A stretch of DNA of 64,000 nt from an uncultured Christensenellaceae bacterium (GCA_964391805.1 CAYMNK010000005.1:96979-160978); one strand, 5' to 3'. Shown: positions 24,311 through 31,418, counted from the stretch's first letter. Translations and numbers: made by a program. The notes: a model not told the origin generated them from the sequence alone.

Positions 24311-25185
24311 GAATGAAGAGTAATAAGTGAAAATGTGTTGATTCTTTGATTGATGGAGAACGTTATCGTTCGCAAGATTCCATTTATCGTTACCGCCTAA
24401 GATACTGCAAGGCGATGCCTTGCACTGCTACGCAGTTCGACTACGCTTACGATAGTATGACATTTGATGAGTAATATAATTTGTGCAAATAAAAAGCAAG
24501 TGCGATGACTTGCTTTGGGCGGGCGATTACTAATCGCCCCTACTTTTGTAATATTTTGTTGTTCTTTATGCAATTTATATGTCCTTTTATATGCTTTTTT
24601 ACAAGGAATTTAGATACCGACGCTATGCGTCGCTGCTTCGCAGTTCGACTACGGTCTATCGACCTACGCTCAGTATGACATTTGATAGTAAAATGCTATT
24701 CAAAGTTTTAGAATGAGAAGATGGGCAATATTATTTCTGCAAATAAAAAGCAAGTGCGATGACCTGCTTTTGGCGGGCGATTACTAATCGCCCCTACTTT
24801 TGTAATATTTTGTTGCTCTTTATGCGATTTATATGTGCTTTTATATGCTTTTTTACAAGGGATTTAGATACCGACGCTATGCGTCGCTGCTTCGCAGTTC
24901 GACTACGCTCAGTATGACATGATCGTTGCTCCGCTATGCAGTTCGATTTCGCTTACGATAGTATGATAAGATTGGTCGCTGTCGCTTAACAAGGAATAAG
25001 ATTCCGACACCGATGGTGTCGCCCTACGGGTTCGACTACGGTTTTTCACCCTTCGCTCAGAATGACATTGATGGTGCGGGGGACTTAGAATGACATTTGT
25101 TTATCCATAACATTGCTTAGCATTACATCATTTGCAATGACGGGACGAATCAGTATGACTGCGGACGGCGTAGTAACAACATTAA
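24311..25185 (+). repeat. Intergenic mosaic repeat locus R4 (the largest): leader-like module F, about six hairpin units, two tandem copies of the ~200-nt twin-hairpin composite, and a partial module E
   Basis: See findings. Segment 24431-24687 is nearly identical to 30953-31210. Copies of aaaaagcaagtgcgatgac(t/c)tgcttt(t)ggcgggcgattactaatcgcccc lie at 24490-24540 and 24746-24794. Confidence 0.92.
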
Positions 25186-25225
25186 AAGAGGACTAAACGA
25201 ATTAATTCGATTGGTCCTTTTTTTT
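25186..25225 (+). terminator. rho-independent terminator closing repeat locus R4
   Basis: aggac...cgaatt/aattcg...gtcct is a long imperfect hairpin followed by a T8 run (25218-25225). Confidence 0.6.
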
Positions 25226-25320
25226 GAGGATAACAATTGAAAACGTAAACAAAAAATATTGCAAACACATTTCATCAATGATATAATATATTAAAAGACA
25301 ATTAAAAGGTAAGAAGTTAT

Positions 25321-25718
25321 ATGACTAAGAATGTTTTATTTAGAATAATTACATTAATATGTTTGATTCTTTTCTTATGTTTATCACTTGTTGGATGTAC
25401 CGACGATGTAGAGGATGTCGAAGTGGAATCAATAACAGTTAATGTTGGAGAATCAATTGAGATTACTATTGATGCTTATGGTGGAACATTATATACTTGG
25501 GAGTATAAAATTAAACCCAAACGTCGAATTGAGTTTACTTCAAGAAAATCTTATTTCAATAGTTGTCCTGACCACTGTGGTGGAGGTGAATACACTTATA
25601 CATTTGTCGCAAAAAAACCGGCAAATGTGACATAAAATTTTCACTTAAGCATAGATTGGATAAATCAACGAAAAAAATAATAATATATAAAGTTACTATT
25701 AATAATTTTGAACAATAG
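25321..25718 (+). pseudogene. chagasin-family (I42) cysteine-peptidase inhibitor lipoprotein, interrupted by a +1 frameshift in an A7 tract (25611-25617)
   Basis: Lipobox LVGC. YGGTLYTWEY and CGGGEYTYTFVAKK resemble the chagasin NPTTGY.W and G.GG..f.f.a motifs. Frame 1 stops at 25633-25635. The next frame, from 25617, reads TGKCDIKFSLKHRLDKSTKKIIIYKVTINNFEQ*, which is the expected beta-strand C-terminus. Confidence 0.6.
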
Positions 25719-30300: not shown

Positions 30301-30912
30301 TCGGGAATGGAAGTTTACCCCACAACCTATACTTATGGTGAAGGTTTATCGAAAATGCCAACGATATATATTTCTACAGGATTATCTGTTTCCGCATTGG
30401 ATTGTTTTTATGGTTGGTATACAAGTAGTAGTTTTACCACAAAGGTAGTTTCCATATCAAAAACACAGTCAGGAAATGTTTATCTGTACGCTAAATATGA
30501 TTATCATGTTGGTAGCACATATTCAAGCGGAACAAATACAATAACAGATGATGGAGTTTTTAAACAAATTTATTTTCCTATAAATATTAATTTAAAATCT
30601 CTTTATTATAATGACGTTAAAAATACAACACTTAGTCGAATAAAAATAGAATTTTCCTTTGATATGTGGGAGGTTGACGACGGATATCAAGACATATATT
30701 TATATAGCGGAACTACTGTTATTTGGGAAGATACAATAAACCGCGGTTCGGGCAAAAACACTTCAGCTATGACTTATTCGAAAACTATATATCTTAATAT
30801 AGAAGATTACAAAAATCTTGACATTCTAAATTTAAGGTTCAGCGCTCATGGTGCATTTTCGGACGATTGGCAGTTTAACAACTTCCAAATGTCAGTCTAC
30901 TTTGTAAACTAA
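27385..30912 (+). CDS. secreted multidomain protein (1175 aa): streptopain-like C10 cysteine peptidase, BspA-type leucine-rich repeats, Listeria-Bacteroides (Flg_new) repeats and an unknown C-terminal domain
   Basis: GGAGG RBS and a signal peptide. NGICTTIAVQLLLGYHNYY resembles SpeB TGCVATATAQIMKYHNYP (catalytic Cys). FHVVVAYGY...LVHYGWG resembles SpeB GHAFVIDG...HVNWGWG (catalytic His). LRR_5-type repeats read I.EYAF..C..L. There are five G(Y/F).F.GW(Y/T/S) repeats. Confidence 0.8.
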   Translation: MKNHKNIIITGLCTMVICICVFCYSTRVVYADNSDSNTFNRSSENTSVEGAYLLHGTNKAKYIFDELNQDKVVGLKYIDNAYYFIANPKHNENNGNYNANGICTTIAVQLLLGYHNYYSDRRLISESYLEDNYGDLSTSLLIDHNGGGKQGREDLGTKDSFCSLLLSLTSNSDNAVLGQTIDNVTDGTKNYINERATSIADSVHISSDYYSKSDAINDIDNGLPIILGMSPFNAPTKSFHVVVAYGYAYIDGVFGYLVHYGWGDAATEVWVPESWFAYQIRMSLDHNHVLKDTLTNHFDAYRELYCEICGYKTIEPLFKASDSKITGANYPINGTFKNPKTITFYNKQNATFSTETITGIAEYAFANNTEITEVVFRGDDITIGSHAFDGCVNLESAQDFLYVKEIGDYAFKGCTSLSDVRISTNISNIGIGVFSGCNNAVIQLYSSNPNYCAQDNIIYNANKTAVIATGKISENVILPSSVTEIKDSAFENNSNLYTIKINSSPTIGDNAFKNCSSLGYVYFYSNTVPVLGENSFSNNNIVIYVPYDSISQYNTAFSEYNYLITSKTSTVSLVCNDTYVPSITLHYGETISSLPSPNILGYTFIDWYDNVNFNGSTYRNGITWLHEDNIVLYAKTSPIISTVTLDPNGGTISGNSQIEATFDQLLNTDASVYRDGYTFEGWYDINNTRYLDSNGEGVRLWDKTVNTVLYAHWSIKNYEIRINDNGSIVWLGASGLSDTSCSIPYGTVLDSINLIATFKASSHGFKEGKIFDHFEYSGTTFNWSSVPDLGADGTIITITPIWIWEYHTIYFNTLSDIVLESITRCFDDIISLPTPIREGYIFDGWTDSSSGTDANVNWVKMPDLTPNTQSNGSTQLYAIWSPIEYYIQYNANGGTGTMNNSTHLYGEEKELNANTFNRLYYSFLGWSTKSNGSVEYNDKQTVKNLTADNNSTLTLYAVWEPYTYNIIYRNLLSGMEVYPTTYTYGEGLSKMPTIYISTGLSVSALDCFYGWYTSSSFTTKVVSISKTQSGNVYLYAKYDYHVGSTYSSGTNTITDDGVFKQIYFPININLKSLYYNDVKNTTLSRIKIEFSFDMWEVDDGYQDIYLYSGTTVIWEDTINRGSGKNTSAMTYSKTIYLNIEDYKNLDILNLRFSAHGAFSDDWQFNNFQMSVYFVN

Positions 30913-30913
30913 A

Positions 30914-31418
30914 GTAAGCGGATTTGGATACCGACGCTATGCGTCGGTGCTTCGCAGTTCGACTACGCTTACGATAGTATGACATTTGATGAGTAATATA
31001 AATTGTGCAAATAAAAAGCAAGTGCGATGACTTGCTTTGGGCGGGCGATTACTAATCGCCCCTACTTTTGTAATATTTTGTTGTTCTTTATGCAATTTAT
31101 ATGTCCTTTTATATGCTTTTTTACAAGGAATTTAGATACCGACGCTATGCGTCGCTGCTTCGCAGTTCGACTACGGTCTGTCGACCTCCGGCTCAGTATG
31201 ACATTTGATGGTAGGTGCGTTATCGTCCGCAAGATACCAAATTGTTGCACAATTTGATTCTCACTTCGTTCGAATTTCGACTACGCTCAGTATGACGGCG
31301 GACGAAACCGATTTAGTATGACATTTGTTTATCCATAATATTGCGAAGCAATACTTCATTTGCCGTAAGGCAAACATCATTCTTCATTATGCATAGCATA
31401 ACATCATTCGCAATAGTG
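30914..31418 (+). repeat. Intergenic mosaic repeat locus R5: hairpin unit, twin-hairpin composite, hairpin unit, a GTCCGC/GCGGAC-bounded unit and the three-hairpin module E abutting the GH13 stop codon
   Basis: Segment 30953-31210 is nearly identical to 24431-24687. Module E (31318-31418) contains attgc-gaa-gcaat, tttgcc-gtaa-ggcaaa and tatgc-ata-gcata, separated by A(C/A)(T/A)TCATT. Confidence 0.92.

Follow-up and report, generated by a model that had tools for sequence, protein, structure and literature searches.

The closest functional analogues of the locus described here are the NIME arrays with dRS3 repeats and the minimal mobile elements of Neisseria. NIME arrays are mosaics of short noncoding intergenic repeats near surface-protein genes; their length and content vary between related genomes, and it has been proposed that recombination of the arrays with related DNA promotes an exchange of the genes beside them (Bentley et al., 2007, PMC1797815). 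Minimal mobile elements are small cassettes without mobility genes, which alternate at one syntenic site between conserved genes (PMC1797815). A comparable arrangement was found in a stretch of 64,000 nucleotides (nt) from an uncultured Christensenellaceae bacterium (GCA_964391805.1 CAYMNK010000005.1:96979-160978), the whole of which is referred to as the window in the following. An AT-rich gene island is located here between tsaD and a gene of the GH13 family, and long near-identical direct repeats bracket it. With a probability of about 0.85, we regard this island as an accessory cassette that is mobile, carries no recombinase, and has inserted into an intergenic site of variable content. 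That the cassette moves within the clade by general homologous recombination, with the dispersed repeats serving as portable homology, is given even odds.

As in the case of minimal mobile elements, the site between the conserved flanks occurs in three states and the cassette lacks a mobility gene. As in the setting of NIME arrays, the cargo is a surface-protein cassette beside mosaic intergenic repeats. In contrast to NIME arrays, the repeat unit is a three-hairpin module of about 90 nt (A-module) together with a double-hairpin module (B-module) rather than a 20-bp inverted repeat flanking RS elements, all copies are found on one strand, and no phage recombinase is known to target the repeat. 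The dRS3 signature ATTCCCN8GGGAAT is absent from the window even if one mismatch is allowed, and the repeats are therefore not members of the NIME/dRS3 family; the host belongs to a different phylum, and there is no sequence relationship. The island can be rated as a repeat-associated variable surface-protein locus, a kind that is already known, and the repeat family itself is apparently undescribed.

The first-pass annotation, made from the sequence of the window, had placed the island between tsaD and a GH13 gene, and this location was confirmed. The flanking features are as follows:

23203-24237, + strand: tsaD, the left core flank (Pfam TsaD, 6.9e-93)
24281-24312, strand not assigned: tsaD terminator-like hairpin (A-run, TGCCC...GGGCA-type stem, T-run), from the sequence and a terminator scan
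31419-33137, − strand: gene of the GH13 alpha-amylase family, the right core flank, convergent with tsaD and the cassette (Pfam Alpha-amylase, 2.6e-153)

tsaD is the last gene of a conserved operon-like run (rnpA-yidC-jag-mnmE-mnmG-rsmG-release factor-tsaD), the order of which is identical in the related contigs L001 and L035; parA-like and spoIIE genes are located beyond GH13. The host is a spore-forming Firmicute; the public genomes closest to it were assembled from metagenomes and bear the label uncultured Christensenellaceae or Clostridia.

The state of the tsaD|GH13 site was compared in two lineages of relatives. In lineage S1 (L003 and L041-43; 79-85% nt identity to the window), tsaD and GH13 are adjacent in all four assemblies. 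Within the spacer of 236 nt, which lacks the cassette, two terminators are accompanied by a degenerate A-module and by 30 nt of a related module type (A*) in inverted orientation; an empty site in relatives, suggested earlier as a check, could thus be identified. Lineage S2 is represented by L035-39 on the tsaD side (90% identity to the window) and by L046-48 on the GH13 side (86-90%). Here, an A-module begins right after the tsaD terminator, and the homology to the window stops at 24286, just within the terminator-like hairpin (BLAST against L035-39). On the GH13 side, a DUF2383 gene of normal composition (GC content at third codon positions (GC3) 0.34) lies next to GH13 and is preceded by another A-module. 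The S2 contigs break between the two sides, which we assign to one genome on account of the shared sample series and the similar identity to the window. Altogether, three states of the site are distinguished: it contains the cassette in the window, is empty in S1, and holds a DUF2383 gene and repeats in S2. In exact-protein look-ups, the strain itself was present in one run only (SRR10277277), in which all its contigs break at repeats, and a scan of metagenomes with TsaD yielded relatives, none of which exceeded 60% identity. In L002 (88% TsaD identity; 11036-15263), tsaD is followed by the gene for a 1327-aa metallophosphatase/purple-acid-phosphatase-like protein and then by shikimate-pathway genes; the 3′ boundary of tsaD is therefore a synteny breakpoint at greater distance, too.

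The base composition of the island deviates from that of its surroundings. In 500-nt windows, the GC content is 0.26-0.35 over 25.25-30.75 kb, while that of either flank is about 0.38-0.46; nowhere else in the window is it as low as in the island. An AT-rich island had been proposed from spot counts, and both the GC profile and the suggested analysis of codon usage bear this out. The four substantial open reading frames (ORFs) of the island have a GC3 of 0.20-0.25, whereas the 38 other genes of the window have a mean of 0.382 (standard deviation 0.032, minimum 0.312). The drop thus lies at synonymous sites; the island DNA is compositionally foreign at these sites, and the low GC content is not an amino-acid effect alone. 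The gene cluster, of about 5.6 kb, and its control signals are arranged as follows:

25184-25233, + strand: terminator-like palindrome T (AGGACTAAACGAATTAATTCGATTGGTCC, then a T-run), directly upstream of the cassette
25259-25287, + strand: sigma-70-like promoter (TTGCAA, 17 nt, TATAAT, extended TG) upstream of the first cassette gene (scan, 10/12, consensus match only)
25321-25635, + strand: 104-aa lipoprotein with a weak match to the chagasin family (peptidase inhibitor I42; PF09394, E 1.6e-5, below the gathering score); GC3 0.20
25936-26478, + strand: 180-aa lipoprotein, a conserved cassette member (34% identical to the 175-aa gene of the L027 cassette); GC3 0.23
26480-26587, + strand: 35-aa ORF, N-terminal remnant of a 98-aa gene that is intact in L026
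26685-27371, + strand: 228-aa membrane-anchored protein; GC3 0.23
27385-30912, + strand: 1175-aa secreted protein (Pfam LRR_5 8e-25, Flg_new 2.7e-35); GC3 0.25

The earlier description of a five-gene island has to be modified accordingly, since the fifth gene is the 35-aa remnant.

No transposase, integrase, or recombinase was found among the ORFs of the 64-kb window (Pfam scans), and searches of the island proteins with Pfam, NCBIfam, PHROGs, and PADLOC did not yield an integrase, recombinase, or transposase either. Phage or conjugation genes were not found in the island. Terminal inverted repeats are absent from its ends, and transposon ends were rejected. A prophage or plasmid origin was rejected, because the region 24240-31420 gave no match in phage and plasmid collections (blastn, distant settings); the sole PHROG match of the island is the leucine-rich-repeat region. 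A defence island was rejected as well (0 PADLOC matches). With classical genomic islands, the locus shares the deviant composition, the accessory surface-protein genes, the direct-repeat flanks, and the absence from the same site in relatives. It differs from them in that it has no integrase, tRNA target, phage, or conjugation genes, and its flanking repeats of 262 nt belong to a dispersed family instead of being a short att duplication. The sole tRNA gene of the window, and also its sole Rfam match at the gathering threshold, is tRNA-Gln at 4362-4435.

The cassette was also detected at other genomic sites. L040, which belongs to a sister lineage, is 89.3% identical to the window over murJ-mazG-dus and carries genes for proteins of 236 and 1176 aa directly downstream of dus, which are 87.1% identical to those of the window. 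The dus|greA spacer is a repeat locus (R3) in the window and contains neither cassette nor repeat in S1. At the right junction in L040, the first 48 nt past the stop codon of the large gene, covering the spacer and the start of an A-module, match the right junction in the window; the contig ends there. The hairpin at this junction shows a compensatory change (GACAC/GTGTC in L040 vs. GACGC/GCGTC in the window). Since S1 is empty, S2 has other cargo, and L040 carries the cassette core at dus|greA, the tsaD|GH13 site is variable and the cassette moves. A further copy in L026 is 87-88% identical to that of the window, and its gene order is permuted (180, 98, I42, 227, 1170). Distant full-length homologs (about 43% identity) retain a core of three genes, namely the 180-like, the 228-like, and the large gene, and are located at ilvBN|pgi or rplL|glnA-III in other hosts. 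These distant cassettes are always AT-shifted (GC3 0.35-0.48 vs. 0.65-0.88 of the host), and none of them contains recombinase or mobility genes.

The island of the window is enclosed by two repeat blocks, termed R4 and R5, with the following elements:

24346-25170, + strand: left repeat block R4, a mosaic of A-modules (three hairpins) and B-modules (double hairpin) in the order A0-U1-U2-A3-A4-X
24426-24686, + strand: U1, left near-identical direct copy (98% to 30948-31209)
24680-24922, + strand: U2, tandem neighbour of U1 with a 254-nt period (its B-A core, 24738-24907, is 96.5% identical to U3)
30920-31418, + strand: right repeat block R5, comprising A1′, U3, an intact A* module, X′, and X″
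30948-31209, + strand: U3, right near-identical direct copy
31218-31305, + strand: intact A*-type module, bracketed by CGTCCGC...GCGGACG

Four substitutions and one single-base indel had been counted by hand between 24431-24687 and 30953-31210, and the MAFFT alignment (258 columns) gave exactly these differences. The identity reaches 5 nt further to the left, to 24426/30948. Four of the five differences between U1 and U3 are found within the last 30 nt, whereas 24426-24657 has a single mismatch, T/A at 24480/31002 (99.6% over 232 nt). Both copies are A-B-A composites, in which the 3′ half of an A-module is followed by a B-module and then by a complete A-module. When the window was compared with itself by BLAST, U1/U3 was the best non-self match (97.7% over 266 nt), and the other long composite copies were 74-80% identical. 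For the latter, the earlier statement that other copies are much more diverged holds true; it has to be restricted with regard to the tandem neighbour U2 (94% over 191 nt) and to single modules of 64-92 nt at other loci, which reach 93-98% identity. The repeat family therefore has young copies at other loci. U1 and U3 agree at all six variants that set them apart from U2. Short ends of an A*-type module are present in the left block at 24361-24378 and 25150-25167, and the right block abuts the stop codon of GH13. We did not commit to a single history of the two blocks, because several scenarios at the level of the modules are equally parsimonious. Among the short-read contigs of the same sample (100% identity), L001 stops at 24460, L016 covers 24889-30982, and L017 terminates at 31383.

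Modules of the family occur at 11 intergenic loci of the window (400-61524) in many combinations. The three hairpins of the A-module are separated by the conserved spacers AGATACC, GTTCGACT, and GCTCAGTATGACA, while the stems vary yet stay paired. In 12 A-module copies, 92.8% of the cells are paired compared with 32-47% in slid controls, and 7 of 13 pairs changed on both sides. The B-module contains two terminator-like hairpins. A profile search identified 18 significant A-modules, all of them on the + strand whatever the orientation of the neighbouring genes, which are convergent, divergent, or tandem beside the repeat loci. The strand uniformity is also evident from the self-BLAST, in which 80 direct and 5 inverted high-scoring segment pairs (HSPs) were obtained for the repeats, and from the motifs GTTCGACTWCR (19/19 on the + strand) and GCTCAGWATGAC (17/18). 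The GC skew tracks the gene strand across the window. A DnaA-box cluster was not found in the window and no origin could be placed; the ORF at 14124-15383 resembles glmM and is not dnaA.

About 70 kb of S1 contained no significant A-module and degenerate pieces only. Considering the 18 copies in the window and the short-read contigs of closer relatives, which end in modules, the family has expanded recently in the clade. A 30-nt A* piece (CGTCCGCAAGATACCAAATTGTTGCACAAT) is present at 31224-31253 and 42528-42557 and is 100% identical to L003 971-1000 in S1, where it is inverted. Since the surrounding genes are 79-85% identical, the sequence of the A* module is far more conserved than neutral DNA. 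No Rfam match to the repeats was obtained at the gathering threshold in the window or at E ≤ 1 for 24240-25320, and a literature search on the clade and REP elements yielded nothing relevant. The ends of the A-module (AGATACC... and ...GCTCAGTATGACA) are not inverted repeats, target-site duplications were not recognisable, and viral contigs gave no match to the module.

Among the described repeats, REP elements and BIMEs (REPINs) of Proteobacteria are short structured extragenic palindromes, which are dispersed, often lie downstream of genes, and have stems maintained by compensatory mutations. They are known to undergo ectopic recombination, to give rise to duplications, and to serve as targets for insertions, and RAYT transposases are associated with them. 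The repeats of the window are likewise imperfect palindromes with covarying stems, here in three helices. However, their copies are direct and do not form inverted doublets or alternating BIMEs, the module combines three hairpins with conserved spacers, the host is a Firmicute, and no RAYT gene is located within the 64-kb window. BOX, RUP, and SPRITE of Streptococcus pneumoniae are small modular intergenic repeats numbering in the hundreds, with interchangeable sub-modules and stem-loop potential. This genome is also that of a Firmicute with modular stem-loop intergenic repeats, but no sequence similarity to these elements was detected, and the repeat blocks have no Rfam match. BOX elements are not known to enclose islands in the form of near-identical long direct repeats. 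In contrast to MITEs, neither the module nor the island is bounded by inverted repeats. Similar to the attC sites of integron cassettes, a structured 3′ repeat stays with the unit at another site and the repeats are co-oriented. Unlike in integrons, neither intI nor attI is present in the window, and the repeats are scattered among core genes of both orientations without forming an array; the cassette moreover has its own promoter-like site and several genes, and its left junction in L040 is devoid of a repeat.

Two further observations concern the repeats. A module X (TTTATCCATAA.ATTGC..AGCA.TACATCATTTGC) recurs at 25082-25142, 31310-31370, 31376-31418, and 44027-44069 and contains the near-consensus DnaA-box-like sequence TTATCCATA; two of its copies directly abut the stop codons of minus-strand genes, namely GH13 and a DUF4349 gene at 44070. 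A second direct pair of the family, 40704-40801 and 42344-42441 (98 nt, 83%), brackets a single DUF2804 gene (41186-42316), whose GC3 of 0.356 is normal.

The outlier identity of U1 and U3, the 3′ junction kept at two loci, and the repeats marking both of these loci argue for recombination between repeats as the way in which the cassette moves within the clade. The occupied site would then be the result of a lineage-specific insertion of a self-contained cassette, equipped with its own promoter and an upstream terminator, into the convergent tsaD-GH13 spacer. The dispersed repeats would provide portable homology for a host recombination of the RecA type. The cassette and the repeat next to it might leave a repeat locus in the form of a circle, excised between flanking direct copies, or might be taken up as a DNA fragment of a sister strain; in either case, recombination into a repeat copy at another locus would follow. 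Such an event would leave direct repeats on both sides, and their homogenisation by crossover or gene conversion could account for the 98% identity of U1 and U3. Recombination between these two copies might remove the cassette again at a later time.

Several observations weigh against an involvement of the repeats. At the left junction in L040, the 190 nt between dus and the 236-aa gene are unique and contain no repeat, and the arrangement there is therefore not a simple repeat-cassette-repeat insertion. In L026, the permuted cassette is followed by a non-repeat 3′ flank. Long flanking repeats were found at none of the distant cassettes, so horizontal transfer of the cassette does not need repeats. 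Since repeats fill 11 of the larger intergenic spacers of the window, some co-occurrence of cassette and repeat is expected by chance; five of the six observed synteny breakpoints are located at repeat loci, but this is statistically not compelling. High identity also arises by local duplication or gene conversion without an island, as evident from the tandem copies (U1/U2; 522-593 vs. 783-854 at 96%) and from the short modules elsewhere. Ordinary members of the family are 74-90% alike, and one crossover between two of them would not by itself produce a tract of 232 nt with 99.6% identity; either an extra gene conversion or near-identical parental copies must be assumed. An excision product was not observed; the short-read contigs of the strain and its relatives all break at repeats. 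The first-pass annotation had suggested acquisition or loss by recombination between repeat copies. The foreign composition, the variable site, and the movement of the cassette agree with this suggestion, whereas the junctions without repeats speak against the part that assigns the repeats the role of the substrate.

A possible, although less probable, explanation is that the repeats are bystanders. The cassette would have been gained or exchanged by homologous recombination in the flanks after DNA uptake, as a minimal mobile element, or by illegitimate recombination, and the repeats would be a proliferating REP- or MITE-like element in long permissive spacers; local duplication, gene conversion over 6.5 kb, or descent from the same young master copy would explain why U1 and U3 are alike. 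This would fit the near-identical copies at unrelated loci (52791-52854 vs. 55812-55875, 98.4%; 40869-40936 vs. 52787-52854, 97%), the existence of tandem local duplicates, the nested appearance of the modules, with A* ends bracketing the left block, and the absence or degeneration of the family at the orthologous S1 spacers, which marks the modules as recent insertions. The repeat-free junctions mentioned above, to the left in L040 and at either flank of the distant cassettes, point in the same direction. However, the most similar long pair of the window is exactly the pair that brackets the island. The junction between the cassette 3′ end and the repeat is common to two genomes with the cassette at different sites, which is hard to explain by an independent arrival of repeats, and the alternative site dus|greA is itself a repeat locus in the window. 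The assembled order could also be questioned on technical grounds, if the true arrangement were tsaD-U-GH13 plus a separate 6.5-kb circle or a cassette located elsewhere, or a mixture of both. This alternative has to be considered, since an empty site plus a 6.5-kb circle would agree equally well with the k=31 graph of the same sample, in which U can be entered from the tsaD side or from the cassette 3′ end and can be left towards U2 or towards GH13. Short-read contigs of the same sample stop exactly at the repeat and are joined only in the deposited 175-kb contig, and the identical stretch between the single-nucleotide polymorphism at position 50 and the 3′ variants of U is about 177 nt. An artefact is nevertheless very improbable, since the U copies differ at five positions, so that two physical copies exist, and the deposited contig passes through 11 repeat loci. 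Furthermore, a 6.5-kb circle without a replication gene would not persist, and L040 independently has the cassette in the chromosome beside the same repeat.

The repeats might also be targets of a trans-acting enzyme with specificity for their sequence or structure that is encoded elsewhere, such as a RAYT, a single-strand transposase of the IS200/IS605 type, or a phage-type recombinase like that targeting Neisseria dRS3. Such an enzyme would move modules as well as the DNA between two modules, and the cassette would behave either like a composite element or like an integron cassette in dispersed form. Strong conservation of the spacer motifs is combined with covariation of the stems, and the strand uniformity is extreme (18/18 modules and the ratio of direct to inverted HSPs); single-strand transposition as in IS200/IS605 biology can yield such a strand bias. 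The recent expansion of the family in the clade and the 30-nt module piece shared without a mismatch by lineages whose genes are 79-85% identical would be in line with this assumption. It is nevertheless unlikely, considering that no transposase or recombinase gene is located in the 64 kb and neither terminal inverted repeats nor target-site duplications were recognisable. The identical tract does not start and stop at the ends of modules but runs from hairpin 2 of one A-module to hairpin 3 of the following one, the left junction in L040 has no module, and the module is found on no viral contig. It is similarly doubtful that the strand-uniform three-hairpin modules are docking sites of an unlinked recombinase or single-strand transposase. 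In that case, a dispersed cassette exchange with an integron-like logic would shuffle recombinase-less surface-protein cassettes, each with its 3′ repeat, between marked core intergenic sites in a clade of gut Clostridia.

If dispersed structured repeats do mediate the movement of surface-protein cassettes in this Christensenellaceae-like clade of uncultured gut Clostridia, gut Firmicutes would share a strategy known so far chiefly from Neisseria, in which arrays of intergenic repeats concentrate recombination on genes for the cell surface. The three-hairpin family, which is supported by covariation, strictly co-oriented, and recently expanded, breaks up short-read assemblies in these organisms and serves as a marker of their variable sites. 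Several lineages of Clostridia contain this cassette in an AT-shifted form at differing core sites. Its cargo is of interest for host-microbe interaction, as it includes a secreted protein with papain-like, leucine-rich, and Listeria-Bacteroides repeat regions and a chagasin-like lipoprotein.

The 1175-aa protein has a signal peptide and, in its N-terminal part, a putative papain-like Cys/His domain; BspA-type leucine-rich repeats and Listeria-Bacteroides (Flg_new) repeats are also present, and its C-terminal domain is conserved. In an alignment of 14 homologs, a GxCTT motif as well as C103, H240, and H259 are invariant within the N-terminal 300 residues or so. The N-terminal domain gave no Pfam or PDB sequence match with the single sequence or with a profile. 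In an AlphaFold2 model (pLDDT 74), all 23 Foldseek matches to the PDB at E ≤ 0.001 were papain-fold peptidases, with a top E of about 1e-4 and a TM score of just 0.26-0.35. A reasonable, albeit unproven, reading of this model is that the large protein is a secreted cysteine peptidase or adhesin paired with its own inhibitor, the chagasin-like lipoprotein. The I42 gene (25321-25635) shares the cassette with the papain-like domain (27385-28400), and the two may form a predicted peptidase/inhibitor pair. Compared with its 119-aa homolog in L026, to which it is 86% identical and which gives a clearer I42 match, the 104-aa lipoprotein is truncated at the C-terminus.

A gene of the 228-aa type is located directly upstream of the large gene in every cassette copy (L026, L027, L031, and L040), and the terminator-like palindrome T travels with the cassette. 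Duplicated promoter/5′ untranslated region modules are present inside the island at 25871-25942 and 26621-26691 (72 nt, 87.5%), upstream of the genes for the 180-aa and the 228-aa protein. In L026, T is present twice (5-51 and 986-1032). The 227/228/236-aa gene occurs in two divergent allelic types (about 50% vs. 76% identity), whereas the large gene stays at 87% or more. Because of these internal duplicated modules, the two copies of T and the permuted gene order in L026, and the two allelic types, the cassette is considered a mosaic.

Further large proteins of the surface or exosporium type are encoded in the window at 36590-39832, 39915-40547, 46393-52668, 52948-55506, and 58808-60316. They include a Big_2 protein, a BclA-like collagen protein, a 2091-aa protein without a Pfam match, and a GLUG protein; a surface-type protein with Flg_new, DUF6273, and FemAB has the lowest GC3 of the core genes (0.31). 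Several of these large genes are bounded by the repeat loci R6 and R8-R11. Relative to both S1 and S2, the window contains an inversion of approximately 4.47-40.65 kb (compare L041 1-2564 and L046 1-2528). In both lineages, tatD-rsmA (2.1-4.47 kb in the window) adjoins the BclA-like gene (40.6 kb in the window). The right end of the inversion adjoins repeat locus R6, and the corresponding junction in S1 holds an A* module. Within and outside the inverted segment, the modules are still located on one common strand.

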